Source of the DNA: Balanoglossus misakiensis
Lineage: Eukaryota; Animalia; Hemichordata
Reading direction: 5' to 3'
Length of the DNA: 64,000 bases
NCBI GenBank assembly: GCA_040954595.2
Contig: CM082577.2
Location: 18,698,303-18,762,302, forward strand
The notes beneath the pieces were generated by a model that made no database searches, was not told the DNA's origin, and saw nothing but the letters and a program-made list of their open reading frames with translations. Position 1 is the first letter of the stretch; each line of letters starts with the position of its first letter. A program made the position numbers and the translations under genes. Below, piece after piece: positions 13,755 to 54,885 of the stretch.

Positions 13755-13784
13755 CTCAAGTGGGATATCTTTGGTTATACAAAA
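13755..13784 (-). other. Candidate 30-nt upstream exon of the RepHel transcript
   Basis: Minus strand: GCTTTCTTGCAG| exon ending GAG |GTAAGT. Confidence 0.4.
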
Positions 13785-14805: not shown

Positions 14806-15684
14806 TAAGTGATCCCATTCCCCATCGTCACACTTTACATTCAAACACCTTTACAAAGACTGAATACTGCATATCAAAATACATGTAAGTACATTGTTTT
14901 CTGCATACACAATAGAACCATGCATAGTGACACAAAAATCATTCAGTGTACATATACAACACAGCCAATCCAGAACGGCTGACAGTGCACACCCAGACAT
15001 AAACAAAGGGTACATGTAGTACTAATACCTAGCCACACACACCCACTTTGATAAACTTGCACACAGACAGGAGTTCCAGACATACATGAATCAACAAAGA
15101 CATGCAGACAAAGATTCAGAAAAAGATGCAAACACATGATACATAGACATACCTACACACACGCATCCACACTCTGATGAACTAGCACACAGACGGACAG
15201 GCATCAAAGAGGTGCAAAGGTCCAAACACACGCAATCACATGGTGCAATTATATACACTGTGCACAGGCTGTATATACCAACATTCACATATGTGCCACA
15301 CACTCAACTAAACTGGCACACGAACAGACATGAAACCAAGCAAAAATTAATCCTCACGTAACAGTTGCTTCTTTTGATATAGCAAAAATTTCATGTCATG
15401 CCAATGACCTGTTTTACAATATGTCATGAACACTTCACCCTGGTGACTTTGTTGTGGTTCATTCTACTTGTGCAGCATTGTAGTCTAAATGCAACATAAG
15501 AATACCCAGCAATACTATTTGCAATCTATGCATATACCTCTAATAGACTATAGAAATGAATTATTCAATTCACAGCTAAAACTACAATTCGTTGCTTCTT
15601 GAACATATTCCCAAGGTTTAATATAACTGCAATTTCTTCCTCAATGACACTAATATGAAATGTACAAAACTGAGAATGTGTTTA

Positions 15685-15779
15685 TTAGCTGCAATGATTG
15701 TAGCGGGTGCTGCTAGGTTGACTGGTGTGTTCGCAGCATCAGTCAACCTAGCAGCACCCGCTACAATCATTGCAGCTAA
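15685..15779. repeat. Perfect 40-bp inverted repeat with 15-nt loop (fold-back MITE-like)
   Basis: TTAGCTGCAATGATTGTAGCGGGTGCTGCTAGGTTGACTG and its exact reverse complement at 15740-15779. Confidence 0.92.
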
Positions 15780-15889
15780 GGATTTCCCTTCGATTACATA
15801 GCGAACCATTTGCACAGATACTTACAGTTTTGCTGGGTTCTGTAATGTATTATTTCATCCAAAAAGCTGCACGTTTCAAGAAAGAACCA

Positions 15890-16300
15890 AAACAAACTCA
15901 CCTGCAGACCGCATGTGGTGGTCGCGATTCTATTTTTACCCTAAGTCCCTAACCCTACTTTTTAGGCAGCTGTGTCAGCGATCGAAAAGAATCGTCAATA
16001 ATTTCACACAATCGAATTAAACTTCGATGATGGCCATCAAGTACTCATAACCCAACATCTTCCCGCACAGTGTCATATATCTTTCGTGCCTTGAAACATC
16101 GGGATCGCTTATCTAAAACTAATTTTCGAAAGACGGGCTTTACAAAATAATACTCACCAGTAGTTCAGTATAGAGTGTGGCTGTAATTGGTATAGCGCCC
16201 CCAAACATTGGTATTCTGCCTTTCTTTTGTACGTCACTTCCGCCCAAGACGTTCAAATAAACGAGTTCGTTGTTACACTTGCGATGACTGTTATGTTTCA
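15890..16300 (-). promoter_or_regulatory. Candidate promoter / first-exon region of RepHel
   Basis: Locally CpG-richer; GTACGTCACTTCCGCCC (CRE/ETS/GC-box-like); minus-strand splice donors GTGAGT at ~16152-16157 and ~15896-15901. Confidence 0.35.
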
Positions 16301-17495
16301 ATCAACATATAATTAATTTCCCCATCGTTATCATTGCTCATTTATTATATTTTGGTGCAAACATCTAATGATAAGATCAACGTGAATGAAAATCTCTTCT
16401 CTCCATTCTTCCGTTGGTGGCGCTGAGCGGTATAGGAGCCTATATATACAGTGGGTGGGCAAATTGGCAGTTCATGGACTTTGCACTATGTATGTGGCAC
16501 TGAAACTTATTTTGGATGAACCTGACCTTATTGAATTCCAATTATTATGATCATCCCTTATTTTATGATTAAGCTACCAAAAAGGTCTGCTTTTATGATG
16601 TTCATTTCATTTATTTGAATCAGGTAAGGTTATAGAAAAATATACATGACACAGATACATGTATGCACCGTCCAAAAGGTTTTCAATACAGAAATGAGTT
16701 TAAAATATTTCTCCAGTGTATGCACTGTAGTGAATTTATATATGTACAGGCATAAACATTCAGCCTTCTGAAACAATTGTTATTGGGCACGGAAATTGTT
16801 GTTAGTACCTGTAAAGATAGACCACAGCTGGAAGCAGTATAAATTTCTGCAAAATGACTGAAATAGTCTCGTATTCACCTGGGTAGAACAGTGAACAACT
16901 ATTCTTGAAAGAAAGTTGTCACAAATACATATTTAACGCATTTGTCACTTAATGTCATCATCATCAACAAAAGAGCTAATAATAAAAACACCAAAATAGT
17001 TGTACGAGTGAACGAGCGAAAGTTCATACCACTAATGGATGTCAAGCATATTTAAACGTTTATGAACACATGCAGGCACAATTTAATTTGGTATTTGAAT
17101 AGCCTGAATAGGTATAGAAGCAAACTTTGCACTCCAATTTTCACATTGTTTCAGCGCTTTTTTAATTATATGCACATGTCTAATATACTACACCAACAAA
17201 TGCAGGTATATGTTTGATTATTGTGGACATGGGTACCAGAACAGATAAAGCCCTGGCATTTGGGGAATTTGAGCACATAATGGAGTCTTACACAATACCT
17301 CATTAATTATGCACATATTTCATTCCAAGCTAACCACAAGCTAGAGGTTGGGTTTTTGGTGGACATGGACCTGTACAGTGTCAAACTGTTTTCCCCAAAT
17401 TTGGGGTGACCTCAGGTGACCTTTGACCTACTTTCCCCATATCTTGGCATCCACAGCAGATACAGCCTTGGCATTTGCTGGTTACCATGGGAACC

Positions 17496-17530
17496 GCTTG
17501 TGCCCCGCCAACGCTGCTTGCAGCTTTAAT
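17496..17530 (+). repeat. 3' terminus: subterminal IR + GCTGCTTGCAGC palindrome + TTTAAT
   Basis: Complementary to the 5' hairpin arm GGGGCACAAGC; the palindrome is shared by all elements in the window. Confidence 0.9.
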
Positions 17531-32300: not shown

Positions 32301-32882
32301 TTCCAGGCTAGCCAATAGGGCTAGAGGTTTGATTTTTGTTGAACATGGACCAGTATGGGGTTAAAATTTCTTGCCCAATTTTGGGTGACCTCAGGTGACC
32401 TTTGACCTACTTTACCATATCTCGGCAACCAGCGCAGATACAGCCTTGGCATTTGGAGGCATGGAACTCCTAATGGAGCCTTATACTTTACCTCATTAAT
32501 TATGTGCATATCTAATTCTAGGCGAACCAATAGGGCTAGAGGTCTGGTTTTTGTTGGCCCTGGACTAGTATGGGGTCAACATTTTTTGCCCAACTTTCGG
32601 GTGGCCTCAGGTGACCTTTGACCTACTTTCCTATATCTCGGCATCCAGAACAGGTACAGCATTTGTGTTTTGATGGATTGAACTATTAATGGAGTCTTAC
32701 ACTTTACATCATTAATTATGTGCATATCTAATTTCAGACAAACCAATAGGGCTAGAGGTCAGGTTTCTGTTGGACCTGGACTAGTATGGGGTCAAAAAAT
32801 TTTGCCCAAATTTTGGGTGACCACATATGACCATTGACCTACGGCTTAAGCTTGTGCCCGTCATCGCTGCTTGCAGCTATAT
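29351..32882 (+). mobile_element. Subfamily Q (GGGCACAAGC) elements: interrupted 3' half, one complete copy (30131-31560), one headless body
   Basis: Ends GCTTAAGCTTGTGCCCGTCATCGCTGCTTGCAGCTATAT; head TAGGGCACAAGCCAAGCAGGCTTGTGCCCTA. Confidence 0.85.
29445..29687. mobile_element. ~240-bp insertion with a long subterminal hairpin, resembling non-autonomous CryptonV-type elements
   Basis: Absent from sister Q copies; AGCAATAACCCCCGCC...CACTCGCCTAACGGCTCGTG...GGCGGGGGTTATTGCT hairpin; no TIR; TTATAT/TTAAAT at the ends. Confidence 0.6.
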
Positions 32883-34534
32883 TTCTTTCCGTCTTTATTC
32901 TTATGTCAATTCTTTGCTCTCCTAGATCTCTGAAACGGCTACAGGTCACTTCTCAAACTTGCTACAGTGGTCAAGGTCAATGAGTAGATGTGCAGTGGCT
33001 TGTGAATACTTAATTAGTCACGTGACCTGGCGGCCATATTGGATTTTCTGAAAATCTTTAAATGGCTTCTTCTCAAAAACCACAGGGCCAATCAAGTTCA
33101 AATTTGGTGTATGGTACACAGGTCCTCTGCCCTTCAAAGTTTGACAATAAAATCCTGAGCGGTCACGTGACTTTGGCCGCCATATTTGATTTTCGAAAAA
33201 GTACAGTAAAATCTTCAAAAATCTTCTTTTCCAGAACCGGAAATAACTGAGTCATGGGATTTAGGGTATGACATCACCTAACTGATGTCTATCAAATTTG
33301 CGTAGACCGTTGTGATTGGTCGAAGGTTATGGCGGCCATATTGGATTTTGTAAAAACCAGTGAAAATTAAGAAATCATTTTTCTAGTCTAAAAATAGATA
33401 GCATACAAATTCTTTTTGTGGATATGAGTCGTCATATGACTAGAATATGTTGTAAATATTTTGGCAATTTTCACATGACCTTTGACCTACTTTTTTAAGA
33501 ACCGGCATATATGCATATAACTCATACTACCTGTTGTAAATGTACCAGAGTTCTGATTTTTGTGCACATTGGTATCACCCCTGCCAGGACCTACCCCAAA
33601 TATTTTGGTAATTTTGGCAATGACCTTTGACCTACTTTTGACACATCGTTTTTTTCTTCATATCTAATTCCAGGTTAACCTATAGGGCTATCATTTTGGT
33701 TTTTGATGTATGTGGATTTGTATGTGATCAAAACATTTCGCTACTTTTCATGACCCCTTTGACCTCTGCTGACCTCATTAAATATGCGCAAACTTAATTA
33801 CAGATGAACCAATAGACCTAGAGGTTTGGTTTTTGTTGGACATGGACCAGTATTGGGTCAAAATTTTTTGCCCAAATGTTGGGTGACCGCGGGTGACCTT
33901 TGACCTACTTTTGCATATCTCGACATCCACAGCAGATACAGCCTTGGCGTTTGGAGATATGGGCCATAATGAAAAGCCAAAGTTTTGGGTCACCAGTGAC
34001 ACCTGCTTAACTCATTATTTATGTGCATACCTAATTCCGGGCTAATCAAAAGGGCTAGAGGTCTCGTTTTTGTTGGACATGGACCACTATGGGTCAAAAT
34101 TTTCTGCCCAAATTTTGGGTGACCTCAGATGACTTTTGACCTACTTTTGCATATCTTGGCATCCAAAGCAGGTACAGCCTTGGCATTTGGAGATATGGGG
34201 CCATAATGAAAAGCCAAAGTTTTGGGTCACCTGTGACACCTGCTTAACTCATTATTTATGCGCATACCTAATTACGGGCTAACCAATAGGGCTAGAGATC
34301 TGGGTTTTGTTGGACATGGACCAGTATGGGTTAAAATTTTCTGCCCAAATTATTGGTGACCTCTGGGTGACCTTTGACCTACTTAACACTATATCAGCAC
34401 CAAACATAGATATAACCTTGATATTTCAAGGGATAAAACACAGCATTATGTTTCTACTCATTAATTATGCACATATCTAATACCAAATCAGATAATACAG
34501 CATGGGCCCCGACAATGCTGCTTGCAGCTTTAAT

Positions 34535-34800
34535 TAGGGCACAAGCCAAGCAGGCTTGTGCCATACTGGTATTACTGGGTTTTTTAGGGCACAAGCCAAG
34601 AAGGCTTGTGCCCTATTGGTATTACTGGGGTTTTTCATCTTTAGGGCACAAGCCAAGCAGGCTTGTGCCCTATTGGTATTACTGGGGTTTTTTAGGGCAC
34701 AAGCCAAGCAGGCTTGTGCCCTATTGGTATAACTGGGGTTTTTCATTAGGGCCCAAGCGCACGGAAGCGCTTGGGCCCTATTGGTTTCGTTGGAATTTTT
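34535..34800 (+). repeat. Stack of five 5' hairpin heads (4 GGGCACAAGC + 1 GGGCCCAAGCGC)
   Basis: Heads at 34535, 34585, 34642, 34693, 34747. Confidence 0.92.
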
Positions 34801-37328
34801 CTTTCTTTCCGGCTTTCTTTCTTTCTTTATTCTTGTGTCAATTCTTTGGGCAACGAGATCTCAGACACCGCTGCAGGTACACTTCTCAAACTTGCTACAG
34901 TGGTCAAGGTCAATGAGTAGATGTGCAGTGACTTGTGAATACTTAATTAGTCACGTGACCTGGCGGCCATATTGGATTTTCTGAAAAAAATCAAATCTCA
35001 GATCTCAGAAACTACAAGTCAGATCGACTTCAAATTTGGCATGCAGGTAGACTACCTTCTACCCATCATTTTTGTAATTGGAAATTTTGCTGTCAATGTT
35101 GCAGTTTTTTTGCTACAATTTTTTTTCTGAAATCTAGCTTAAATTTCAAAAATCTTCTTCTCCAGAACCGGTGATAAGCGAGACACAAGGTTTGGGGTAT
35201 GTGGTCACCTAACTGATGTCTATCAAGTTTGCGAAGATCATTGTGATTGGTCGGAGATTATGGCGGCCATATTGGATTTTCGAAAAACCATAGTTAAACT
35301 CCAAAAATCTTCTTCTCCAGAACGGGCGATGACTGAGTCGCAAGATTCGGGGAGTATGGTCACTACACTGATGTCTATCAAGTTTGCAAAGAGCATTGTG
35401 ATTGGTCGAAGATTATGGCGGCCATATTGGATTTTGTAAAAAGCAGTGAAAAATTAAAATTCCTTTTTCTAGTATAAAAATTGATAGCATACAAATTATT
35501 TTAATGGATATCATTCGTCATATGACTACAATATGTTATAAATTTTTGGCGATTTTTCACATGACCTTTGACCTACTTTTCACACATTATTATTTCTGCA
35601 TATCTAATTCCAGGCTAACCTATAGGGCTAGACGTTTGGTTTTTGATGCATGTGGATTAGTGTGTGATCAAAATATTTTGCTACTTTTCATGACCCCTTT
35701 GACCTCTGCCGACCTCATTAATTATGTGCATAGCTAATTACAGGCGAACCAATACAGCTAGAGGTTTGGTTTTTGTTGAACATGGACCAGTATGGGGTCA
35801 AAATTTTTTGCCCAAATGTTGGGTGACCTCTGGTGACCTTTGACCTACTTTCGCATATCTCAACGTCCAGAGCAGATACAGCCTTGGCATTTGGCAGGAT
35901 GGGACCTAAATGTAAAGCCAAATTTTTGGATCACCTGTGACACCTGCTGACCTCATTAAATATGCACATACCTAATTACACGCGAACCAATAGAGCTAGA
36001 GTTTTGGCTTTTGTTGGACATGGCCCAGCATGGGTCAAAAATTTTTGCCCAAATGTTGGTGATCTCAGGTGACCTTTGACCTACTTTACCCTATTTCAGC
36101 CGCAAAAATACACACGTCCTTGTTATGTCATGAAATAATACACCCGATAGAAAATTCTGTTTCTTCTCATTCATACTGCGCATATATAATTCAAGATCAG
36201 CGCTTGGGCCCGACAATGCTGCTTGCAGCTTTAATCCTTTTTTTTTTCTTGTGTAGTTTTTTTGCTCAGGTAGATCTTGAAAACGGCTGAAACTACAAAT
36301 CTCAAACTTGGCACAGTGGTGCAGGCCTATGGGAGCTGGTGCAGTACCTTTGTGAATGTTTAATAAGTCATGTGACCTGATGACTATATATGGGCAAAGT
36401 TTTCAAATGGGCCTAATTTGCATATGAATGGAGATATCAAAATTCTTTTAGCAACTTTTGTGGACCATGTGATCAGTGTCCTACATGCCAAATATCAAGG
36501 TCATTGACCAGTATGGGGTTAAAAAAATTTGCCCAAATTCTGGGTGACCTCAGGTGACCTTTGACCTACTTTCCTATATCTCCGCATCCAGAGCAGTTAC
36601 AGACTTGGCGTTTAGAGGGTTGGGACTAAAATTGAAAAGCCAAAATTGGGGGTCACCTGTGACACCTGCTTATCTCATTAATTATGTGCATACCTAATTC
36701 CAGGCTAACCAATAGGGCTAGAGGTTTTGTTCTTGTGGGACATGGACCAGTATGAGGTTAAAAAAATTTGCCCAAATTTTGGGTGACCTCAGGTGACCTT
36801 TGACCTACTGTCCTATATCTCCGCATCAATAGCAGGTACAGACTTGGCGTTCGGAGGGTTGGGACTATAATTGAAAAGCCAAAATTGGGGGTCACCTGTG
36901 ACACCTGCTTATCTCATTAATTATGTGCATACCTAATTCCAGGCTAACCAATAGGGTTAGAGGTTTGATTTTTGTTGAACATGGACCAGTATAGGCTCAA
37001 AATTTCTTGCCCAAATTTTGCATGACCTCAGGTGACCTTTGACCTAATTTTCCATATCTTGGCAACCAGAGCAGGCAAAGACTTGGCGTTTGGAGGGTTG
37101 GGACTAAAATTGAAAAGCCAAAATTTGGGGTCACCAGTGACACCTGCATATCTCATTAATTATGTGCATACCTAATTCCAGGCTAACCAATAGGGCTAGA
37201 GGTCTGGTTTCTGTTGGACCTGCACTAGTATTGGGATCAAAACGTTTTGCCCAAATTTTGGGTGAACACATATGACCTTTGACCTTCGGCTTAAGCTTGT
37301 GCCTGTCATCGCTGCTTGCAGCTATATT

Positions 37329-37644
37329 TAGGGCACAAGCCAAGCAGGCTTGTGCCCTATTGGTATTACTGGTTTTTTTTACGGGCCCAAGCCAAGCCAG
37401 GCTTGGGCCCGTATTGGTTTCGTTGGGTTTTTACGGGCCCAAGCCAAGCCAGGCTTGGGCCCGTATTGGTTTCGTTGGAGTTTTTACGGGCCCAAGCCAA
37501 GCCAGGCTTGGGCCCGTATTGGTTTCGTTGGAATTTTTAGGGCCCAAGCGCACAGCAGCGCTTGGGCCCTATTGGTTTCGTTGGGGTTTTTAGGGCCCAA
37601 GCGCATACCAGCGCTTGGGCCCTATTGGTTTCGTTGGGGTTTTT
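37329..37644 (+). repeat. Stack of six 5' hairpin heads, ~52-bp period
   Basis: Heads at 37329 (GCAC), 37380/37432/37485 (CGGGCCC), 37538/37591 (GCGC). Confidence 0.93.
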
Positions 37645-40600
37645 CTGTCTTTCTTTCTTTCTTTCTTTATTCTTGTGTCATTTCTTTGTCGCTCTAGATC
37701 TCAGACACCGCTGCAGGTACACTTCTCAAACTTGCTACAGTGGTCAAGGTCAATGGGTAGTCGTGCATTCAACTCTTGAATTTTTAATTAGTCACGTGAC
37801 ATGGCGGCCATATTGGATTTTCTGAAAAAATGCAAATCTCAGATCTCAGAAACTACAAGTCAGATCGACTTCAAATTAGGTGTGCAGGTAGTCTACCTTC
37901 TACCCATCATTTTTGTAATTGGATATTTTGCTGTAAATGTTGCAGTTTTTTTGCTACAATTTTTTTTCTGAAATCTGGCTTAAATTTCAAAAATCTTCTT
38001 CTCCAGAACCGGTGATAACCGAGTGACGCGGTTTGGGGTATGTGGTCACCTAACTGATGTCTATCAAGTTTGATAAGAAGCATTGTGATTGGTCGAAGAT
38101 TATGGCGGCCATATTGGATTTTCGAAAAACCATAGTAAAACTGCAAAAATCTTCTTCTCCAGAACGGGCGATAACTGAGTCGCAAGATTCGGGGAGTATG
38201 GTCACAACACTGATGTCTATCAAGTTTGCAAAGAGCATTGTGATTGGTTGAAGATTATGGCGGCCATATTGGATTTTGTAAAAAGCAGTGAAAAATTGAA
38301 ATTCCTTTTCCTAGTCTAAAAATTGACAGCATACAAATTCTTTTCATGGATATCAATCATCATATGACTAAAATATGTTACAAATTTTTGGCGATTTTTC
38401 ACATGACCTTTGACCTACTTATCACGCGTTATTATTTCTGCATATCTAATTCCAGGCTAACCTATAGGGCTAGACTTTTGGTTTTTGATGCATGTGGATT
38501 AGTGTGTGATCAAAATATTTTGCTACTTTTCATGACCCCTTTGACCTCTGCTGACCTCATTAATTATGTACATAGCTAATTACAGGCGAACCAATAGAGC
38601 TAGAGGTTTGGTTTTTGTTGGACATGGACCAGTATGGGATCAAAATTTTTTGCCCAAATGTTGGGTGACCTCTGGTGACCTTTGACCTACTTTCGCATAT
38701 CTCAGCATCTAGAGCAGATACAGCCATGGCATTTTGTAGGATGGGACCAGAATGTAAAGCCACATTTTTGGGTCACCTGTGACACCTGCTGACCTCATTA
38801 AATATGCACATACCTGATTACATCCGAACCAAAAGAGCTAGAGTTTTGGTTTTTGTTGGACATGGACCAGTATGGGTAAAAAAAAATTGCCCAAATGTTG
38901 GGTGACCTTAGGTGACCTTTGACCTACTTCACTCTATTTCAGCAGCAAAAATACACACATCCTTGTTATGTCATGAGATAATACATCCGATAGAAAATTC
39001 TGTTTCTTCTCATTCATACTGTGCATATATAATTCAAGATCAGCGCTTGGGCCCGACAATGCTGCTCGCAGCTTTAATTCTTTCTTTCTTTCTTTATTCT
39101 TGGTTCACTTCTTTGTCGCTCTAGATCTCAGACACCACTGCAGGTACAGTTTTCAAACTTGCTACAGTGGTCAAGGTCAATGAGTAGTCATGCATTGAAC
39201 CCTTGAATTTTTAATTAGTCACGTGACCTGGCGGCCATATTGGAATTTCTGAAAAAATGCAAATCTCAGATCTCAGAAACTACAAGTCAGATCGACTTCA
39301 AATTTGGTGTGCAGGTAGTCTACCTTCTACCCATCATTTTTGTAATTGGATATTTTGCTGTAAATGTTGCAGTTTTTTTGCTACAATTTTTTTTCTGAAA
39401 TCTGGCTTAAATTTCAAAAATCTTCTTCTCCAGAACCGGTGATAACCGAGTGACGCGGTTTGGGGTATGTGGTCACCTAACTGATGTCTATCAAGTTTGA
39501 TAAGAAGCATTGTGATTGGTCGAAGATTATGGCGGCCATATTGGATTTTCGAAAAACGATAGTAAAACTGCAAAAATCTTCTTCTCCAGAACGGGCGATA
39601 ACTGAGTCGCAAGATTCGGGGAGTATGGTCACAACAATGATGTCTATCAAGTTTGCAAAGAGCATTGTGATTGGTCGAAGATTATGGCGGCCAAAATGGA
39701 TTTTGTAAAAAGCAGTGAAAAATTGAAATTCCTTTTCCTAGTCTAAAAATTGACAGCATACAAATTCTTTTCATGGATATCAATCGCCATATGACTAAAA
39801 CATGTTACAAATTTTTGGCGATTTTTCACATGACCTTTGACCTACTTATCACGCGTTATTATTTCTGCATATCTAATTCCAGGCTAACCTATAGGGCTAG
39901 ACTTTTAGTTTTTGATGCATGTGGATTAGTGTGTGATCAAAATATTTTGCTACTTTTCATGACCCCTTTGACCTCTGCTGACCTCATTAATTATGTGCAT
40001 AGCTAATTACAGGCGAACCAATAGAGCTAGAGGTTTGGTTTTTGTTGGACATGTACCAGTATGGGATCAAAATTTTTTTCCCAAATTTTGGGTGACCTCG
40101 GGTGACCTTTGACCTACTTTCGCATATCTCAGCATCCAGAGCAGATACAGCCATGGCATTTGGCAGGATGGGACCAAAATGTAAAGCCTCATTTTTGGGT
40201 CACCTGTGACACCTGCTGACCTCATTAAATATGCACATACCTAATTACAGCCGAACCAATAGAGCTAGAGTTTTGGTTTTTTGTTGGACATGGACCAGTA
40301 TGGGTCAAAAAAATTTGCCCAAATGTTAGGTGACCTCAGGTGACCTTTGACCTACTTCACCCTATTTCAGCAGCAAAAATACACACGTCCTTGTTATGTC
40401 ATGAGATAATACACCCGATAGAAAATTCTGTTTCTTCTCATTCATACTGTGCATATATAATTCGAGATCAGCGCTTGGGCCCGACAATGCTGCTCGCAGC
40501 TTTAATTCTTTCTTTCTTTCTTTCTTTATTCTTGTGTCAATTCTTTGACCCACGAGATCTCAGACACCGCTGCAGGTACACTTCTGAAACTTGCTACAGT

Positions 40601-41938
40601 GGTCAAGGTCAATGAGTAGTCGTGCATTGAACCCTTGAATTTTTAATTAGTCACGTGACCTGGCGGCCATCTTGGATTTTCTGAAAAAATGCAAATCTCA
40701 GATCTCAGAAACTACAAGTCAGATCGACTTCAAATTTGGCATGCTGGTAGACTACCTACTGCCCATCATTTTTGTAATTGGAAATTATGCTGACAAAGTT
40801 GCAGTTTTTTGCTACAATTTTTTTTCTGAAATCTGGCTTAAATTTCAAAAATCTTCTTCTCCAGAACCGGTGATAACCGAGACACAGGGTTTGGTGTATG
40901 TGGTCAGCTAATTGATGTCTATCAAGTTTGCGAAGATCATTGTGATTGGTCAAAGATTTTGGCGGCCATATTGGATTTTCGAAAAACCCTAGTAAAATTT
41001 CAAAAATCTTCTTCTCAAGAACCGGCGATAACCGAGTCACAAGATTTGGTGTGTGTGGTCATTAAACAGATGTCTATCATGTTTGCTAAGAAGAATGTGA
41101 TTGGTCGAAGATTATGGCGGCCATATTGGATTTTGTGAAAAACGATTATAAAGTAAAAATTCCCTTTCTAGCCTAAAAATTGATAGCACAGAAATTCTTT
41201 TTATGGATATGAATCATCATATGACAAGAATAAGCTATAAATATTTTGGTAATTTTGGCAATGACCTTTGACCTACTTTTGACGCATCATTTTTCTGCAT
41301 ATCTAATTCCAGGCTAACCAATAGGGCTATAAGTTTGGTTTTTGATGTATGTGGATTTGTATGTGATTAAAAAATTTTGCTACTTTTCATGACCCCTTTG
41401 ACCTCTGCTGACCTCATTAAATATGCACATACCTAATTACAGATGAACCAATAGACCTAGAGGTTTTGTTTTTGTTATACATGGACCAGTATGGGGTCAA
41501 AATATTTTGCCCAAATGTTGGGTGACCTTGGGTGACCTATGACCTACTTTTGCATATCTTGACATCCACAGCAGATACAGCCTTGGCGTTTGGAGGTATG
41601 GGGCCATAATGAAAAGCCAAAGTTTTAGGTCACCTATGACACCTGCTTAACTCATTATTTATGTGCATACCTAATTCCGGGCTAACCAAAAGGGCTAGAG
41701 GTCTGGTTTTTGTTGGACATGGACCACTATTGGTCAACATTTTCTGCCCAAATTGTGGGTGACCCCTGGGTGACCTTTGACCTACTTAATACTATTTCAG
41801 CACCAAACATAGATATAACCTTGATATTTCATGGGATAAAGCACAGCATTATGTTTCTACTCATTAATTATGTGCATATCTAATAATCAACTCAGATAAT
41901 AGAGCTTGGGCCCGGACAATGCTGCTTGCAGCTTTAAT

Positions 41939-42045
41939 TAGGGCCCAAGCGCTTGCTTGCGCTTGGGCCCTATTGGTTTCGTTGGGGTTTTTAGGGCCCA
42001 AGCGCAAGCAAGCGCTTGGGCCCTATTGGTTTCGTTGGAATTTTT
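41939..42045 (+). repeat. Stack of two GCGC-type hairpin heads with mutually inverted loops
   Basis: GGGCCCAAGCGC-TTGCTT-GCGCTTGGGCCC and GGGCCCAAGCGC-AAGCAA-GCGCTTGGGCCC. Confidence 0.92.
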
Positions 42046-45000
42046 CTTTCTTTCTTTCTTTATTCTCCTGTCAATTCTTCGGCCAACGAGATCTCTGAAA
42101 CTACTGCAGGTACACTGCTCAAACTTGCTACAGTGGTCAAGGTCATTGAGTAGATGTGCAGTGACTTGTGAATACTTAATTAGTCACGTGACCTGGCGGC
42201 CATATTGGATTTTCTGAAAAAATGCAAATCTCAGATCTCAGAAACTACAAGTCAGATCAACTTCAAATTTGGCATGCAGGTAGACTACCTTCTGCCCATC
42301 ATTTTTGTAATCGGAAATTATGCTGTAAAAGTTGCAGTTTTTTTGCTACAATTTTTTTCCTGAAATCTGGCTTAAATTTCAAAAATCTTCTTCTCCAGAA
42401 CCAGTGATAACCGAGTCACGGGGTTTGTGGTATGTGGTCACCTAACTGATGTCTATCAAGTTTGCGAAGATCATTGTGATTGGTCGAAGATTATGGCGGC
42501 CATATTGGATTTTCGAAAAACCATAGTTAAACTCCAAAAATCTTCTTCTCAAGAACGGACGATGACTAAGTCGCAAGATTCGGGGAGTATGGTCACTACA
42601 CTGATGTCTATCAAGTTTACAAAGAGCATTGTGATTGGTCGAAGATTATGGCGGCCATATTGGATTTTGTAAAAAGCAGTGAAAAATTGAAATTCCTTTT
42701 TCTAGTCCAAAAATTGATAGCATACAAATTCTTTTTATGGATATCAATCGTCATGTGACTAAAATATGTTACAATTTTTTGGCGATTTTTCACATGACCT
42801 TTGACCTACTTATCATGCGTTATTATTTCTGCATATCTAATTCCAGGCTAACCTATAGGGCTAGACGTTTGGTTTTTGATGAATGTGGATTAGTGTGTGA
42901 TCAAAATATTTTGCTACTTTTCATGACCCCTTCGACCTCTGCTGACCTCATTAATTATGTGCATAGCTAATTACAGGCGAACCAATAGAGCTAGGGGTTT
43001 GGTTTTTGTTGGACATGGACCAGTATGGGATCAAAATTTTTTGCCCAAATGTTGGGTGACCTCTGGTGACCTTTGACCTACTTTCGCATATCTCAGCATC
43101 CAGAGCAGATACAGCCATAGCATTTGGTAGGATGGGACCAAAATGTAAGGCCACATTTTTGGGTCACCTGTGACACCTGCTGACCTCATTAAATATGCAC
43201 ATACCTAATTACAGGCGAACCAATAGAGCTAGAGTTTTGGTTTTTGTTGGACATGGACCAGTATGGGTCAAAAAAATTGCCCAAATGTCGGGTGACTTCA
43301 GGTGACCTTTGACTTACTTCACCCTATTTCAGCGCAAAAATACACACATCCTTGTTATGTCATGAGATAATACATCCGATAGAAAATTCTGTTTCTTCTC
43401 ATTCATACTGTGCATATATAATTCAAGATCAGCGCTTGGGCCCGACAATGCTGCTCGCAGCTTTAATTCTTTCTTTCTTTCTTTCTTTTTTCTTGTGTCA
43501 ATTCTTCGGCCAACTAAATCTCTGAAACTACTGCAGGTACACTTCTCAAACTTGCTACAGTGGTCAAGGTCAATGAGTAGATGTGCAGTGGCTTGTGAAT
43601 ATTTAATTAGTCACGTGACATGGCGGCCATATTGGATTTTCTGAAAAAATGCAAATCTCAGATCTCAGAAACTACAAGTCAGATCGACTTCAGATTTGGC
43701 GTGCAGGTAGTGTACCTTCAGCCCATCATTTTTGTATTTGGATATTTTGCTGTCAATGTTGCAGTTTTTTTGCTACAGTTGTTTTTCTGAAATCTGGTCA
43801 AAATTTCAAAAATCTTCTTCTCCAGAACCGGCGATAACCAAGTCACGCGGTTTGGGGTATGTGGTCACCTAACTGATGTCTATCAAGTTTGCGAAGATCA
43901 TTGTGATTGGTCGAGGATTATGGCGGCCATATTGGATTTTCGAAAAACCATAGTTAAACTCCAAAAATCTTCTACTCCAGAACGGGCGATGACTGAGTCT
44001 CAAGATTCGGGGAGTATGGTCACTACACTGATGTCTATCAAGTTTGCAAACAGCATTGTGATTGGTCGAAGATTATGGCGGCCATATTGGATTTTGTAAA
44101 AAGCAGTGAAAAATTGAAATTCCTTTTCCTAGTCTAAAAATTGATAGCATACAAATTCTTTTCATGGATCTCAATCGTCATATGACTAAAATATGTTACA
44201 AATTTTTGGCGATTTTTCACATGACCTTTGACCTACTTATCACGCGTTATTATTTCTGCATATCTAATTCCTGGCTAACCTATAGGGCTAGACGTTTGGT
44301 TTTTGATGAATGTGGATTAGTGTGTGATCGAAATATTTTGCTACTTTTCATGACCCCTTTGACCTCTGCTGACCTCATTAATTATGTGCATAGCTAATTA
44401 CAGGCGAACCAATACAGCTAGAGGTTTGGTTTTTGTTGGACAAGGACCAGTATGGGGTCAATTTTTTTTGCCCAAATGTTGGATGACCTCTGGTGACCTT
44501 TGACCTACTTTCGCATATCTCAGCATCCAGAACAGATACAGCCATGGCAGTTGGCAGGATGGGACCAAAATGTAAAGCCACATTTTGGGGTCACCTGTGA
44601 CACCTGCTGACCTCATTAAATATGCACATACCTAATTACAGGCGAACCAATAGAGCTAGAGTTTTGGTTTTTGTTGGACATGGACGAATATGGGTCAAAA
44701 AAAATTTCCCAAAATTTGGGTGACCTCAGGTGACCTTTTACCTACTTTACTCTATTTCTGCAGCAAAAATACAAACGTCCTTGTTATGTCATGAGATAAA
44801 AAACCTGATAGAGCATTCTGTTTCTTCTCATTCATACTGTGCATATATAATTCCGGATCAGCGCTTGGGCCCGACAATGCTGCTTGCAGCTTTAATTCTT
44901 TCTTTATTCTTATGTCAATCTTTGCTCTCCTAGATCTCTGAAACGGCTACAGGTACACTTCTCAAACTTGCTACAGTGGTCAAGGTCAATGAGTAGATGT

Positions 45001-48000
45001 GCAGTGGCTTGTGAATATTTAATTAGTCACGTGACCTGGTGGCCATATTGGATTTTCTGAAAATCTTTAAATGGCTTCTTCTCAAAAACCACAGGGCCAA
45101 TCAAGTTCAAATTTGGTGTATGGTACACATGTCCTCTGCCCTTCAAAGTTTGACAATAAAATCCTGAGCGATCACGTGACTTTGGCCGCCATATTGGATT
45201 TTCAAAAAAGTACAGTAAAATCTTCAAAAATCTTCTTCTCCAGAACCGGCAATAACCGAGTCATGGGATTTAGGGTATGACATCACCTAACTGATGTCTA
45301 TCAAGTTTGCGAAGAGCGTTGTGATTGGTCGAAGATTATGGCGGCCATATTGGATTTTGTAAAAACCAGCGAAAATTAAGAAATCATTTTTCTAGTCTAA
45401 AAATAGATAGCATACAAATTCTTTTTATGGATATGAGTCGTGATATGACTAGAATATGTTGCAAATTTTTTGGCAATTTTCACATGACCTTTGACCTACT
45501 TTTTTAAGAACCTGCATATATGCATATATAGCTCATACTACCTGTTCTAAATGTACCAGAGTTCTGATTTTTGTGCACATTGGTATCACCCCTGCCAGGA
45601 CCTACCCCAAATATTTTGGTAATTTTTGCAATGACCTTTGACCTACTTTTGACACATCGTTTTTTCTGCATATCTAATTCCAGGCTAACCTATAGGGCTA
45701 TCATTTTGGTTTTTGATGTATGTGGATTTGTATGTGATCAAAAAATTTCGCTACTTTTCATGACCCCTTTGACCTCTGCTGACCTCATTAAATATGTGCA
45801 TACCTAATTACAGATGAACCAATAGACCTAGAGGTTTGGTTTCTGTTGGACATGGACCAGTATTGGGTCAAAAATTTTTGCCCAAATGTTGGGTGACCTC
45901 GGGTGACCTTTGACCTACTTTTGCATATCTCGACATCCACCGCAGATACAGCCTTGGCGTTTGGAGGTATGGGGCCATAATGAAAAGCCAAAGTTTTGGG
46001 TCACCTGTGACACCTGCTTAACTCATTATTTATGTGCATACCTAATTCCGGGCTAACAAAAAGGGCTAGAGGTCTGGTTTTTGTTGGACATGGACCACTA
46101 TGGGTCAAAATTTTCTGCCCAAATTTTGGGTGACCTCAGATGACCTTTGACCTACTTAACACTATATCAGCACCAAACATAGATATAACCTTGATATTTC
46201 ATGGGATGAAACACAGCATTATGTTTCTACTCATTAATTATGTGCATATCTAATAATCTGATCAGATAATAGAGCTTGGGCCCGGACAATGCTGCTTGCA
46301 GCTTTAATTTCTTTCTTTCTTTATTCTTATGTCAATTCTTTGCTCTCCTAGATCTCTGAAACGGCTACAGGTACACTTCTCAAACTTGTTACAGTGGTCA
46401 AGGTCAATGAGTAGATGTGCAGTGGCTTGTGAATATTTAATTAGTCACGTGACCTGGCGGCCATATTGGATTTTCTGAAAATCTTTAAATGGCTTCTTCT
46501 CAAAAACCACAGGGCCAATCAAGTTCAAATTTGGTGTATGGTACACATGTCCTCTGGCCTTCAAAGTTTGACAATAAAATCCTGAGCGGTCACGTGACTT
46601 TGGCCGCCATATTGGATTTTCGAAAAAGTACAGTAAAATCTTCAAAAATCTTCTTCTCCAGAACCGGCAATAACCGAGTCATGGGATTTAGGGTATGACA
46701 TCACCTAACTGATGTCTATCAAGTTTGCGAAGAGCATTGTGATTGGTCGAAGATTATGGCGGCCATATTGGATTTTGTTAAAACCAGTGAAAATTAAGAA
46801 ATCATTTTTCTAGTCTAAAAATAGATAGCATACAAATTCTTTTTATGGATATGAGTCGTCATATGACTAAAATATGTTGCAAATATTTTGGCAATTTTCA
46901 CATGACCTTTGACCTACTTTTTTAAGAACCTGCATATATGCATATATAGCTCATACTACGTGTTCTAAATGTACCAGAGTTCTGATTTTTGTGCACATTG
47001 GTATCACCCCTGCCAGGACCTACCCCAAATATTTTGGTAATTTTGGCAATGACCTTTGACCTACTTTTGACACATCATTTTTTCTGCATATCTAATTCCA
47101 GGCTAACCTATAGGGCTATCATTTTGGTTTTTGATGTATGTGGATTTGTATGTGATCAAAAAATTTCGCTACTTTTCATGACCCCTTTGACCTCTGCTGA
47201 CCTCATTAAATATGCGCATACCTAATTACAGATGAACCAATAGACCTAGAGGTTTGGTTTTTGTTGGACATGGACCAGTATTGGGTCAAAATTTTCTGCC
47301 CAAATTTTGGGCGACCTGCTTAACTCATTATTTATGTGCATACCTAATTCCGGGCTAACCAAAAGGGCTAGAGGTCTTGTTTTTGTTGAACATGGACCAC
47401 TATGGGTCAAAATTTTCTGCCCAAATTTTAGGTGACCTCAGATGACCTTTGACCTAATTTTGCATATCTCTGCATCCAAAGCAGGTACAGCCTTGGCATT
47501 TGGAATATGGGGCCATAATGAAAAGCCAAAGTTTTGGGTCACCAGTGACACCTGCTTAACTCATTATTTATGTGCATACCTAATTCCGGGCTAACCAAAA
47601 GGGCTAGAGGTCTGGTTTTTGTTGGACATGGACCACTATGGGTAAAATTTTCTGCCCAAATTGTGGGTGACCTCTGGGAGACCTTTGACCTACTTAACAC
47701 TATATCAGCACCAAACATAGATATAACCTTGATATGTCATGGGATAAAACACAGCATTATGTTTCTACTCATTAATTATGTGCAGATCAGATAATAGAGC
47801 TTGGGCCCGGACAATGCTGCTTGCAGCTTTAATCTTTTTTTTTTTTCTTGTGTCGTTTTTTTGCCCAACAGGATCTTGAAAACGGCTGAACCTACAAATC
47901 TCAAACGTGGCACAGTGGTGCAGGCCTATGAGAGCTGGTGCTGTACCCTCGTGAATGTTTAATAAGTCATGTGACCTGATGACCATATATGGGCAAAGTT

Positions 48001-49666
48001 TTCAAATGGGCCTAATTTGCATATGAATGGAGATATCAAAATTCTTTTAGCGATTTTTGCAGACCATGTGGTCAGTGTCCTACATGCCAAATGTCAAGGC
48101 CGTGGGCCAAGTCTATTTTGAGAAGAAGATTTTTTTATTTTTCATATTTTTGGACCCAGCCATAGGCCTATACTCTCTATAGTTAAGCTATCACGCTATG
48201 TCCACGTTGGCTGTGCAATGGTCCTGTACAGTGACTCTCTATTGGCCCGTCAGCAGAATGGGACCACAATAAAAGGCAACATTTTGGGCTCACCTGTAAC
48301 ACCTGCTTAACTCATTAATTATGTGCATACCTAATTCCAGGCTAACTAATAGGGCTAGAGGTTTTGTTCTTGTGGGGCATGGACCAGTATGGGATCAAAC
48401 ATTTTTGCCCAAATTTTGGGTGACCTCAGGTGACCTTTGACCTACTTTCCTATATCTCGGCATCCACAGCAGGTACAGACTTGGCGTTTGGAGGGTTGTG
48501 ACTAAAATTGAAAAGACAAAATACAAGGTCACCTGTGACACCTGCTTATCTCATTAATTATGTGCATACCTAATTCCACGCTAACCAATGGGGTTAGAGG
48601 TTTGATTTTTGTTGAACATGGACCAGTATAGGGTCAAAATTTCTTGCCCAAATTTTGCATGACCTCAGGTGACCTTTGACCTAATTTACCATATCTTGGC
48701 AACCAGAGCAGGCACAGACTTGGCGTTTGGAGGGTTGGGACTAAAATTGAAAAGCCAAAATTGGGGGTCACCTGTGACACCTGCATATCTCATTAATTAT
48801 GTGCATACCTAATTCCAGGCTAACCAATAGGGCTAGAGGTTTTGTTCTTGTGGGACATGGATCAGTATGGGGTCAAAAATTTTGCCCAAATTTTGGGTGA
48901 CCTCAGGTGACATTTGACCTACTTTGCCATATCTCGGCATCCAGAACAGGTACAGCATTTGTGTTTTGATGGATTGAACTATTAATGGAGTCTTACACTT
49001 TACATCATTAATTATGTGCATATCTAATTTCAGACAAACCAATAGGGCTAGAGGTCAGGTTTCTGTTGGACCTGGACTAGTATGGGGTCAAAAAATTTTG
49101 CCCAAATTTTGGGTGACCACATATGACCATTGACCTACGGCTTAAGCTTGTGCCCGTCATCGCTGCTTGCAGCTATATTTCTTTCCGTCTTTATTCTTAT
49201 GTCAATTCTTTGCTCTCCTAGATCTCTGAAACGGCTACAGGTCACTTCTCAAACTTGCTACAGTGGTCAAGGTCAATGAGTAGATGTGCAGTGGCTTGTG
49301 AATACTTAATTAGTCACGTGACCTGGCGGCCATATTGGATTTTCTGAAAATCTTTAAATGGCTTCTTCTCAAAAACCACAGGGCCAATCAAGTTCAAATT
49401 TGGTGTATGGTACACATGTCCTCTGCCCTTCAAAGTTTGACAATAAAATCCTGAGCGGTCACGTGACTTTGGCCGCCATATTTGATTTTCGAAAAAGTAC
49501 AGTAAAATCTTCAAAAATCTTCTTTTCCAGAACCGGAAATAACCGAGTCATGGGATTTAGGGTATGACATCACCTAACTGATGTCTATCAAGTTTGCGAA
49601 GACCGTTGTGATTGGTCGAAGGTTATGGCGGCCATATTGGATTTTGTAAAAACCAGTGAAAATTAA

Positions 49667-50269
49667 AGCCACAGTATTTCTCGTAGGGGCAAAATTTTGT
49701 TTGAAACGGCATCTATAATTTCTAAAAGTAGATGATAATTGATACTGAATCGAACAGTCATCATCCCCAGCTCTGCTGATAAACTCATACAATTTACAAT
49801 ATAACGAGTGAAGAATGACTTTCTGTCCGGACAGAAAGTCACGTGAGTCAGGCTAATGTTGACACACGTGACTAGTGCGCATGCGCACTCCAATGTGAAT
49901 CTATGCGGAAGAGGTTTGGTCGCCCCAAATCAAGCGACTCAGCGAAGAAATGCGCACTAATTCGGCGAAATTTTGGGAAGATAACTTTATGGGAGAAATC
50001 AGTCGATGGAACCAGATCAAATCCGAAAATGGTCTGACCATCAAAATGTCAAAGTGGCACGTTTGCTGATCGACATGTACAACATTTCCGTTGTAAACAA
50101 ACCCGCGCATCATTTCAAGTGTTACGGGCGATATTTTCGGCTTGCATGTAGCTACAATTGCCCAAACCTTTCTTACATCTTCATTATATAGTATTCCATG
50201 ATGGATGTACTGGAAAAACGGGCTTTTTTCGATGATGAAAAATGGATGCACACGAGAAATACTGGGGCT
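49667..50269. mobile_element. Non-autonomous Kolobok-like DNA transposon
   Basis: TTAA TSD (49663-49666, 50270-50273); TIR AGCCACAGTATTTCTCGT / ACGAGAAATACTGGGGCT; empty site GAAAATTAAGAAATC at ~33362. Confidence 0.85.
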
Positions 50270-51674
50270 TTAAGAAATCATTTTTCTAGTCTAAAAATAG
50301 ATAGCATACAAATTCTTTTTGTGGATATGAGTCGTCATATGACTAGAATATGTTGTAAATATTTTGGCAATTTTCACATGACCTTTGACCTACTTTTTTA
50401 AGAACCGGCATATATGCATATAGCTCATACTACCTGTTGTAAATGTACCAGAGTTCTGATTTTTGTGCACATTGGTATCACCCCTGCCAGGACCTACCCC
50501 AAATATTTTGGTAATTTTGGCAATGACCTTTGACCTACTTTTGACACATCGTTTTTTTCTTCATATCTAATTCCAGGTTAACCTGTAGGGCTATCATTTT
50601 GGTTTTTGATGTATGTGGATTTGTATGTGATCAAAAAATTTCGCTACTTTTCATGACCCCTTTGACCTCTGCTGACCTCATTAAATATGCGCACACTTAA
50701 TTACAGATGAACCAATAGACCTAGAGGTTTGGTTTTTGTTGGACATGGGCCAGTATTGGGTCAAAATTTTTTGCCCAAATGTTGGGTGACCTCGGGTGAC
50801 CTTTGACCTACTTTTGCATATCTCGACATCCACAGCAGATACAGCCTTGGCGTTTGGAGATATGGGCCATAATGAAAAGCCAAAGTTTTGGGTCACCAGT
50901 GACACCTGCTTAACTCATTATTTATGTGCATACCTAATTCCGGGCTAATCAAAAGGGCTAGAGGTCTCGTTTTTGTTGGACATGGACCACTATGGGTCAA
51001 AATTTTCTGCCCAAATTTTGGGTGACCTCAGATGACTTTTGACCTACTTTTGCATATCTTGGCATCCAAAGCAGGTACAGCCTTGGCATTTGGAGATATG
51101 GGGCCATAATGAAAAGCCAAAGTTTTGGGTCACCTGTGACACCTGCTTAACTCATTATTTATGTGCATACCTAATTCCGGGCTAACCAATAGGGCTAGAG
51201 GTCTGGTTTTTGTTGGACATGGACCACTATGGGTCAAAATTTTCTGCCCAAATTTTGGGTGACCTCAGATGACCTTTGACCTACTTTCGCAAATCTCGAC
51301 ATCCACAGCAGATACAGCCTTGGCGTTCGGAGGTATGGGGCCATAATGAAAAGCCAAAGTTTTGGGTCACCTGTGACACCTGCTTAACTCATTATTTATG
51401 TGCATACCTAATTACGGGCTAACCAAAAGGGTTAGAGATCTGGGTTTTGTTGGACATGGACCACTATGGGTTAAAATGTTCTGCCCAAATTATTGGTGAC
51501 CTCTGGGTGACCTTTGACCTACTTAACACTATATCAGCACCAAACATAGATATAACCTTGATATTTCAAGGGATAAAACACAGCATTATGTTTCTACTCA
51601 TTAATTATGCGCATATCTAATACCAAATCAGATAATACAGCATGGGCCCCGACAATGCTGCTTGCAGCTTTAAT

Positions 51675-51807
51675 TAGGGCACAAGCCAAGCAGGCTTGTG
51701 CCCTACTGGTATTACTGGGTTTTTTAGGGCACAAGCCAAGAAGGCTTGTGCCCTATTGGTATTACTGGGGTTTTTCATCTTTAGGGCACAAGCCAAGCAG
51801 GCTTGTG
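51675..51807 (+). repeat. Stack of Q-type heads; third head interrupted and resumes at 54922; fourth at 54953
   Basis: Matches 34535-34746, including the AAGAAGG loop variant in head 2. Confidence 0.9.
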
Positions 51808-51844
51808 TATGGAAAGCCACAGCTGTCTTAAGTCCATTGTTACC

Positions 51845-52250
51845 ATTATATGCTCTGCATACATCATTATACCCTGCTCGTACATCATTATACGACACTC
51901 GTACATCATAATACAATGTGCATACATCATTATACAATGTGCATATATCATTATACAATGTGCATACATCATTATACGATATGCATACATCATTATACAA
52001 TGTGCATACATCATTATACGACGCTCATACATCTTTATACAATGTGTATACATCATTATACAATGTGCATATATCATTATACGATGTGCATACATCATTA
52101 TACGCTGCTTGTGCATCATTATACGCTGTGGATACATCATTATACGCTGCCCATACAGAATTATACGACGCTTATGCATCATTATATGACGCTTATACAT
52201 CATTATACGCTGCTTGTGCATCATTATACGCTGTGCATACATCATTATGC
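51845..52250 (+). repeat. 21-bp minisatellite (TACATCATTATACAATGTGCA-like) in left TIR arm
   Basis: Tandem degenerate 21-mers. Confidence 0.9.
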
Positions 52251-52680
52251 GTCGCTCATTCACCATGATACTATGCCCATTCAACATACGGTGCGCGTTT
52301 GGCTTTATACTATGCCGACATGTCATTATGATATGCTATTCCTAACCCCAATTCCGTCAAAGAGGGCGCACTTATACACATGACGGTACTGAAGTAAGAC
52401 TTGGATTCGACCATCGCGGTTTGGCATCTGCAGTACGAGTATGAAAATAAGTTTTTATAACTCTGTAAAAATATGAATATATTTGATCAAACTCTTTCGA
52501 CATGTTATGTATGATATTTTTGGCACCAAATCACAGTTTTTGCACATCAGAAATTGTTTAATACATATTTTATCATCGAGAAACATACTTCGATGATAAA
52601 AAGATATAATTTTGAAATTTTCGGCTTGAATAAACATTTTTTGGGTGAGAAAAATGTCATACATAACAAGTACAGATTAA

Positions 52681-54310
52681 ATTAAAGCTGCAAGCAGCGT
52701 TGGCGGGGCACAAGCGGTTCCCATGGTAACCAGCAAATGCCAAGGCTGTATCTGCTGTGGATACCAAGATATGGGAAAGTCATCGTCGCAAACCACGGCC
52801 CTTTTACGGCAGCGCTCTGCTCCCCCAAAAAGGACGTGGTATAATACGGCCATGTATTCAGTATTTGGTCTAGGCGCTTTCATAGTACACCCAACAACCA
52901 ATCAGATTGCTTGTTACATCCCATTCACGCATCTCATTACATCTCATTCTAAACAACATGGCGGCTTCCAGTGTGGAAGTGCTATTGTCCCAGCTCTCCT
53001 CGAGAGACGGGCTTTGATTGGCCAGATTATAATGATGTCATCTCATGAATATGCATTACCAATATGTTCAAATACCAGCGCGGTACTCCATTTTAACCAG
53101 AGTACGTGATTTCGATAGTGAAACGAAAGAAATCCGTAGTCTGGTGGGGCGAGAATGGGGAAAGTAAGTCAAAAGTCACCTGAGGTCACCCCATATTTGC
53201 ACAAAAATATTGGACCTCATACTAGTCTGCGTCCAACAAAAACCAGACCCGTAGCCCTATTGGTTCGCCTAGAATTAGGTATGCACATAATTAATGAAGT
53301 CTTGTGTAAGACTCCATTGTGCTCAATCCCCCCAAAAGCCAGGGCTCTAACTGCTGCGGCTGCTGAGATATGGGAAATTAGATCAAAGGTCACCCAAGGT
53401 CACCCAAAATTTGGGCATAAAATGTTGACCCCATAGTGGACCATGTCCAACAAACACACGACCTCTAGCCCTATTGGTTAGCCTGGAATAAGATATGCAG
53501 AAAAATGATGTTTCAGAAATAGGTCAAAGGTCATTGCTAAAATTCCCAAAATATTTGTGTCATGTCCTGGTAGCAGTGGTACCCATGTCCACAAATTTCA
53601 TGACTGTGGTGCTGTTGCAAGAGGAGGTACAAGGCATATGCATATATAATTAGTTGTTTTAAAACTGGGTCAAAGGTCATGGGAAAATTGGACCCCCCCC
53701 CAAAAAAAAAAAAAAAAAAAATAATAATAATAATAATTGTGACAAGTTCCGGTCATATGATGACTCATATCCACAAAAAGATTTTCCATGCTGTCATCAT
53801 TTTGGCTACAAAACGGAATTTTCATTTTTCAATGGTTTTCCGAAAATCCAATATGGCCGCCATAACGATAGACCAATCACAGTGCGCTTCGCATACTATA
53901 TAGACATAGGTTAGGTGACCACATACCCCGAATCCCGTGACTCGGCAATCGCTGGTTCTGGAGGAGAAGATTTTTTAAAGTTTTAAGTAGTTTTTCAGAA
54001 AAACAATTGTAGCAAAAAACCTGCAACTTTGACAGCATAATTTCCAATTACAAAAATGATGGACAGAAGGTAGTCTACCTGCACGCCAAATTTAAAGGTG
54101 ATCAGACTTGTAGTTTCTGAGATCTGAGATTTGCATTTTTCACGAAATCCAATAAGGCCGCCAGGTCACGTGACTAATTAAATATTCACAAGCCACTGCA
54201 CATCTACTCATTGACCTTGACCACTGTTGCAAGTTTGAGAAGTGTACCTGCAGTAGTTTCAGAGATCTAGTTGGCCGAAGATTGACAGGAGAATAAAGAA
54301 AGAAAAACCC
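52681..54310 (-). mobile_element. Inverted, chimeric, headless non-autonomous Helentron inside the long-TIR element
   Basis: ATTAAAGCTGCAAGCAGCGTTGGCGGGGCACAAGC is the reverse complement of the P 3' end; switches to GCCC-family 5' body sequence near 54020. Confidence 0.85.
52781..53157. mobile_element. 377-bp insertion with 8-bp TSD and imperfect TIRs (Zisupton- or hAT-like)
   Basis: GGGAAAGT at 52773-52780 and 53158-53165; ends CATCGTCGC...GCGAGAATG. Confidence 0.7.
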
Positions 54311-54429
54311 GAAAAGTGCGCCCTCTTTGACGGAATTGCGGTTAGGCATAGCATATCATAATGACATGTCTGCATAGTATAAAGCCAAACGCGCACCGTA
54401 TGTTGAACGGGCATAGTATCATGGTGAAT

Positions 54430-54885
54430 GAGCGACGTATAATGATGTAGGCACAGCGTATAATGATGAAGGCACAGCGTATAATGATGTATGCACAGCG
54501 TATAATGCTGTATACACATTGTATAAAGATGTATGGGCAGCGTATAATGATGTATGGGCAATGTATAATGATGTATTCACAGCGTATAACGATGCACAAG
54601 CAGCGTATAATGATGTATGCACATTGTATAAAGATGTATGAGCGTCGTATAATGATGTATGGGCAATGTATAATGGTGTATTCACAGCGTATAACGATGC
54701 ACAAGCAGCGTATAATGATGTATGCACATTGTATAAAGATGTATGAGCGTCGTATAATGATGTATGGGCAATGTATAATGATGTATTCACATCGTATAAC
54801 GTTGCACAAGCAGCGCATAATGATGTATACACATTGTATAAAGATGTATGAGCGTCGTATAATGATGTATGGGCATCATATAATG
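54430..54885 (-). repeat. 21-bp minisatellite in right TIR arm (inverted)
   Basis: GTATAATGATGTATGCACATT-like units. Confidence 0.9.

Follow-up and report, generated by a model that had tools for sequence, protein, structure and literature searches.

A 64,000-nucleotide stretch of Balanoglossus misakiensis DNA (hereafter the window) holds two copies of a repetitive element, Q, that begin alike: at 34693 the head of the element is cut by a complete element of another subfamily, termed GCGC, whereas at 54953 the same head runs on without a break. This arrangement raises the question of whether the second copy preserves the target as it was before insertion, what the insertion did to that target, and why the newcomer landed there. 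The parts of the two sites are as follows.

34693..34746, + strand: head of the host Q, with its 5' end repeat at 34695-34704, a hairpin whose inner arm starts at 34712, and a T-rich tract ending in CAT at the cut
34747..36235, + strand: inserted non-autonomous Helentron of the GCGC type, 1489 bp, a complete element; 5' repeat 34749-34760, inner arm 34767-34778 and (TCTT)n tract on the 5' side, then a 155-bp internal repeat, the 3' repeat 36200-36211 and a stem-loop 36218-36229
36236..37328, + strand: remainder of the host Q, comprising a body with 239-bp repeats, the 3' repeat, the stem-loop and the end
54953..56594, + strand: insertion-free duplicate of the host Q, with the empty site between 55006 and 55007 and a 3' end likely from another Q copy

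An earlier note, made from the sequence alone, had described this pair, and its coordinates and sequences for both Q sites match the window. Within the whole window, GGTATAACTGGGG is present at 34726 and 54986 only, and GCTCAGGTAGATC at 36264 and 55035 only. When the two sites were aligned, as the note proposed, excision of 34747-36235 left 312 consecutive bases identical to the 54953 copy (54 to the left and 258 to the right of the junction), with 31 further identical bases upstream. The empty site reads CAT^CC and the filled site CAT, TAGGG...GCAGCTTTAAT, CC; no base was gained or lost at the junction. The nesting of one subfamily within another is likewise real, the end repeat of the insert being GGGCCCAAGC and that of the host GGGCACAAGC, and the insert is 93-94% identical to copies at 59161, 41992 and 37591. 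The filled Q is without about 280 bp farther downstream relative to the 54953 copy. We conclude that, barring precise loss, the empty site at 54953 is the true pre-insertion state of the site at 34693. Sequenced contigs mapped to the filled site yielded Q-head-to-Q-body joints of other copies and none spanning the 34693 locus.

The two Q copies lie in a larger duplicated block, the halves of which, about 32740-37328 and about 49030-56594, are roughly 99% identical.

32740..37328, + strand: duplicated block, copy 1; left edge approximate, within a Q body
49030..56594, + strand: duplicated block, copy 2; left edge approximate
34535..34746, + strand: stack of four Q heads, copy 1
51675..55006, + strand: four-head stack, copy 2; 211/212 bases identical to copy 1 with an unrelated TIR element set aside
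51808..54921, no strand assigned: the unrelated TIR element, its terminal inverted repeats about 560 bp long; breaks the Q hairpin of head 51782, in copy 2 only

The GCGC insert is private to copy 1 and the TIR element to copy 2. On this evidence the two Q copies are not independent transpositions: they go back to a recent segmental duplication, unless the assembly has joined two alleles. This strengthens the filled/empty comparison but means that the copies count as one event. A left edge inside a Q body is as unequal crossover between Q bodies would give. The far 3' ends of the two copies differ, with 15 mismatches in the last 200 aligned columns as against 5 between the tails at 56594 and 59107, and the copy-2 Q is therefore likely to be chimeric, its 3' end deriving from another Q copy. 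For the same reason we rejected the sibling at 37329, present in copy 1 only, as proof of tail targeting, since copy 2 may have lost it by recombination. The inverted repeats of the TIR element are identical at 494/562 aligned bases and contain 21-bp subrepeats; the element ends in TATGG...CCATA and has an apparent 6-bp duplication, CTTGTG. It carries a passenger at about 52680-54310 on the - strand, a fragment of a Helentron whose A-type tail is 98% identical to the end of the autonomous-type element described below and which has no hairpin head; this is the sole - strand member in the window.

The earlier note held that the filled/empty pair fixes the termini of the insert. In fact, because AT lies on both sides, the excision works equally in three registers (slid 0, -1 or -2 bases), and this junction is among the more ambiguous. 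Its notation for the element ends, (T)...(T), was nevertheless correct. The accompanying statement that there is no duplication stands in so far as the element's own ends could account for any apparent net duplication, but not at the level of the single base, where a 1-bp T is inseparable from none; formally, the 34693 junction permits a duplication of one A or T, or of AT. We therefore turn to the junctions of 10 inserts with both flanks known, a tabulation that the note had also proposed. All are T^T or T^C when the element is read as T...T. Two of the 10 permit an overlap of at most one base, so there is no general duplication of 2 bp or more. Insertion might still duplicate one T, leaving an element that reads TAGGG...CTTTAA. 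A duplicated single T is compatible with 10/10 junctions, and once its child (window 56595) is excised the host at 51782 carries six T, one more than the five of intact Q copies, the extra T being either insert-borne or due to slippage. However, such a duplication is the same in sequence as a terminal T without duplication, and in the available texts single-strand HUH transposons are reported to insert without duplications (PMC5876387) and HINE empty sites to show none, with variable T counts (PMC4067079). We thus consider a 1-bp duplication very improbable.

Q, GCGC and the related small elements are HINE/DINE-1-like non-autonomous Helentrons built on the Helitron2 plan. They have a 5' repeat two bases from the end, folded into a hairpin, followed by a microsatellite and central repeats of 155 and about 238 bp, and on the 3' side a repeat 24-25 nt from the end and then a small stem-loop. 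The insert begins with TA and then GGGCCCAAGCGC at 34749, paired with 34767-34778, as in the 5'-repeat hairpin of Helitron2, HLE2 and HINE elements. Its 3' repeat (36200-36211) is 24 nt from the end, within the 20-30 bp typical of the group, and complementary to the 5' repeat. Over all parsed pairs, the 5' and 3' repeats are complementary over 10-12 bases in 22/24; of the others, one has a single substitution and one sits at the duplication break. The 3' stem-loop of the insert, GCTGC-TT-GCAGC at 36218-36229, has the expected form; it appears in the folds of Q and A tails and is absent from the lowest-energy fold of the GCGC insert tail. No ORF of at least 100 aa lies wholly within the insert, in keeping with a non-coding HINE. 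A canonical Helitron1 (5' TC, 3' CTRR, no terminal repeats) was considered and rejected, the ends here being TAGGG and GCAGCTTTAAT with asymmetric repeats.

The window also contains a potential source of transposase.

132..17530, + strand: Helentron of autonomous type, 17.4 kb, whose ends are built like those of the small elements
5372..12817, - strand: intact 2481-aa ORF with OTU, DUF6570, Rep (FYRVEFQQRGSPHTH; YxxxY at 1460), PIF1 helicase and AP endonuclease

The ORF is uninterrupted, runs opposite to the polarity of the element's ends and includes a 54-bp coding repeat at 10885-11360. Its product matches Pfam families PF14214, PF05970, PF03372, PF02338 and PF20209, all over the cut-off, and has both Helentron Rep signatures; in motif 2, FYRVEFQQRGSPHTH fits F/Y-x-R before V/I-E-x-Q with S between G and P, the signature given in the available text of PMC4067079. 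On these sequence features we regard the 17.4-kb element as a candidate active driver. It shares its ends with the A subfamily (about 95% over 1 kb); for the Q and GCGC types the resemblance is confined to the general plan of the ends and the final 17 or so bases.

The nested pair is one instance of a general arrangement. In the whole window we identified 29 heads and 32 tails, all on the + strand, in addition to the - strand tail carried in the TIR element. To their left, 17 of the 29 heads lie within another head at offsets 50-57 (14 independent) and 12 directly follow a tail; no head (0/29) has foreign DNA on its left. Heads 51725, 51782 and 54953 and the tail at 49179 were dropped from counts as duplicates. 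When heads and tails were parsed as opening and closing brackets, 24 head-tail pairs closed within the window. Tail type matched head type in 11/12 interrupted elements, a result equalled by 2/200,000 shuffles in a test that permitted 'Gx' heads two tail types, as intact copies show both; the sole mismatch sits at the duplication break. Two stacks illustrate the order.

37329..49179, + strand: nested stack of eight elements, six deep, whose bodies reappear in reverse order
59108..63558, + strand: four-head stack, in which three elements close within the window in reverse order

It might be argued that such stacks are not insertions at all but arose when heads and bodies were duplicated in tandem and recombined unequally. 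Recombination has indeed occurred here, as the 99%-identical block and the likely chimeric Q 3' end show. Yet what lies at 34747 is an entire element, intact at both ends and from a different subfamily, the reverse pairing of head and tail types fails only at the duplication break, and for 34747-36235 the exact empty duplicate refutes this explanation, barring precise loss. As a general account of the stacks, we regard it as extremely unlikely. Rolling-circle concatemers were also rejected as a source of the tail-head tandems, because neighbouring pairs (n=6) are only 84-94% identical and of mixed types.

The head-insertion habit may not be confined to the window. Sequenced contigs from two runs of one sample, possibly the window's own source, were mapped to a reference that combined a tail-head junction with 470 bases of Q. 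Among the joints listed, 4/4 from the Q tail reach host offsets 49-62 and none reaches 63-470, at depths of 25 to 3180 that are not copy numbers; a head-to-head joint was seen as well. This suggests that the habit extends beyond this window. Twenty metagenome-contig loci found by a scan for the head pattern were rejected as unrelated, because none has a tail motif or a second head.

Where, then, do the newcomers land? Of 19 independent tails after which a host resumes, 17 lie at offsets of about 47-74 behind the host's head and two in mid-body. The head zone makes up 5-34% of candidate T sites under five definitions, giving P of at most 7e-7, a value to be read with the caveat that the window was selected as a nest and that insertion events in one nest may be non-independent. 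The head has a second relevant property: the inner arm of its hairpin (-16.5 kcal/mol by folding in the host Q) equals the 3' repeat in both sequence and orientation. All 14 independent in-head cuts fall 21-28 nt behind this arm, 12 of them at 21-22 nt, the 34693 site at 25 and one at 28. At real 3' ends, the distance from motif to end is 24-25 nt in 30/32 tails. Between 52 and 70% of the T sites in the tract are 29-65 nt from the arm and yet unused (P 3e-5 to 5e-8). Beyond heads and tails, the window holds only one more sense-strand copy of the motif. In all heads the subfamily microsatellites, (TCTT)n, (TTA)n, (TTC)n or poly-T, start at the hot spot (offsets of about 50-95); repeated nicking and repair might have seeded each of them, although this is speculative. 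The two mid-body cases are A-type elements that end, at 19948 and 29350, within W and Q hosts, at T^T sites near one and the same conserved TAGTTAAGCTA segment; this segment may mark a further, weaker hot spot.

What is directly observed is the family of the elements, their nesting and single orientation, the narrowness of the landing zone, and the spacing. To account for these we lean, with modest confidence, towards a model in which a complete HINE entered an older relative's head, leaving the number of target bases unchanged, because the transposase took the inner arm and the following T-run for the 3' end of an element. A RepHel-EN protein like the product of 5372-12817 would mobilise the elements in single-stranded form, through nicking and joining of the HUH kind, so that no staggered-cut duplication would arise. 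The enzyme would locate GCTTG(G/T)GCCC, either by binding or through pairing of the incoming 5' repeat with the motif, and then cut at a T about 21-28 nt downstream. It would thus treat the target as it would its own 3' end, and a look-alike end would attract insertion. A resident copy presents this geometry of motif, spacing and T twice, behind its head and at its tail; newcomers would therefore enter heads, giving nested stacks, or abut tails, giving mixed tandems, and since every newcomer adds fresh sites the array would grow into itself. Several observations sit less well with this model. The spacing is inexact, the 12 cuts at 21-22 nt falling 2-3 nt short of the distance at real ends. The two mid-body T^T insertions, made by the autonomous-type subfamily, have no motif at 21-28 nt (judged from homologous copies). 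The first T-run of the head also fits the Helitron2 target TTTT^T/C given in the available text of PMC5148889. Finally, the 12 heads that follow tails provide no independent support for tail targeting, because the same layout results when a newcomer enters the head site of the host ahead of an insert already present there; no pair of tail-head siblings in the window could be ordered by age.

Might a preference for T-rich DNA (TTTT^Y) be sufficient, with clustering due to local hopping and tolerance of a gene-free region? T-rich or TT targets are described for HINEs and Helitron2 in the available texts of PMC4067079 and PMC5148889, and both mid-body insertions used plain T^T sites. However, 87% of TTTT^Y sites (324/372, intact elements, both strands) lie outside the head zone, where only two of the 19 events occurred, and there are no inverted insertions although A-runs are abundant. 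Moreover, the 34693 site is CAT^C and not TTTT^Y. This already disfavoured explanation strikes us as improbable. A more serious rival is that the adjoining DNA is opened by the hairpin structure, or by transposase that loads at the 5' end as if at an origin, and that the first T-run is then used regardless of the sequence or orientation of the arm. The head folds stably (-16 to -20 kcal/mol), and since the distance from the arm back to the first T-run is 18-22 nt, proximity alone would yield cuts at 21-22 nt; in addition, 3/8 children of Q hosts inserted across subfamilies despite repeat mismatch. In its structure-driven version, in which any hairpin next to a T-run would serve, this rival is a strong competitor to recognition of a mimicked end. 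Nevertheless, it does not predict that the cut distance should equal the element's own 3' geometry, and two cuts go beyond the T-run, to 25 and 28 nt. Children also match the repeat type of their host above chance (15/18, Fisher p = 0.0065), although age order could also cause this concordance. On balance we consider the hairpin explanation rather unlikely.

Recognition of a mimicked 3' end might be the general rule of target choice. A Helentron transposase would then pick its target as any repeat motif followed, after about 22-25 nt, by a T, possibly by pairing with the incoming 5' repeat, much as IS608-type enzymes pair a guide with their target. In this broader form we put the idea forward only tentatively, and think it somewhat doubtful. 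If it were true, the 5' hairpin that every copy requires would hold the decoy, which would make the family a self-homing eukaryotic HUH transposon, and the landing site would be programmable with a 35-nt pad. The wider nest pattern gives a precise and testable landing rule of motif, distance and strand. This rule would explain reported multiple 5' termini, and would show large repeat blocks growing by self-insertion and not from concatemers. The order in which subfamilies were active could then also be read from the nesting: GGGCCC types occur within Q hosts three times, and Q within GGGCCC hosts in 0/10 cases.

The filled/empty pair itself confirms known HINE behaviour, insertion at TT without duplication having been published. 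A fixed self-insertion site, bracket-like stacks and the spacing match were not found in the literature searched, which took in the available texts of the papers cited here, with supplements, most subscription journals and Repbase reports outside its scope; nor was a target-selection mechanism for Helitron2 or Helentrons found in that literature. As far as the available text of Thomas et al. (2014, PMC4067079) goes, HINE/DINE-1 elements resemble those described here in their 5' subterminal repeat with adjacent inverted copy, microsatellite, central tandem repeats, 3' subterminal repeat and stem-loop, and in their T-rich targets, unmodified empty sites and ambiguous terminal Ts; one Helentron in that work also has a reversed ORF, as does our 17.4-kb element. 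Unlike ours, their insertions are dispersed in T-rich DNA, and that text describes no fixed site in the element's own head and no deep stacks. Similarly, the Helitron2 group (Bao and Jurka, 2013, PMC3627910), which is the HLE2 of HELIANO (PMC11417382 and its preprint), is described in the available texts with a hairpin-forming 5' repeat 0-2 bp from the end, a 3' repeat 20-30 bp from the end and before a hairpin, a reversed RepHel as in Helitron-1_DR, and DUF6570, OTU and EN domains. There, pairing of the 5' and 3' repeats is proposed to end replication (PMC3627910), whereas a role for the repeats in target choice is our own suggestion.

Other systems offer partial parallels, here again as described in the available texts. 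Oyster Cg_HINE (PMC7492417) are non-autonomous Helentrons with short arrays of 140-180-bp repeats; in contrast to our window, the word 'nested' is absent from the main text. Work on a bat Helitron has demonstrated single-strand nicking, circles in which the two ends are joined, and cutting at the circle junction (PMC5876387). A Hydractinia preprint and a Xenopus study (PMC12001565) describe tandem arrays and, in those texts, no fixed-site self-insertion. Maize Helitrons with multiple termini (PMC3288121) prefer to insert near or in other Helitrons and provide nested intermediates, but have canonical Helitron1 ends, and that text reports no fixed position. Like our elements, Fusarium FoHeli with multiple 5' termini (Chellapan et al., 2016, PMC5148889) are proposed to self-insert near the 5' end, with a possible double insertion into a 5' end and ambiguity of the boundary T. 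There, however, self-insertion is a hypothesis based on a small number of cases and on extra termini of 31-85 nt, whereas the present window shows complete elements nested in one another, a duplicate of the site that lacks the insert, and a narrow landing site.
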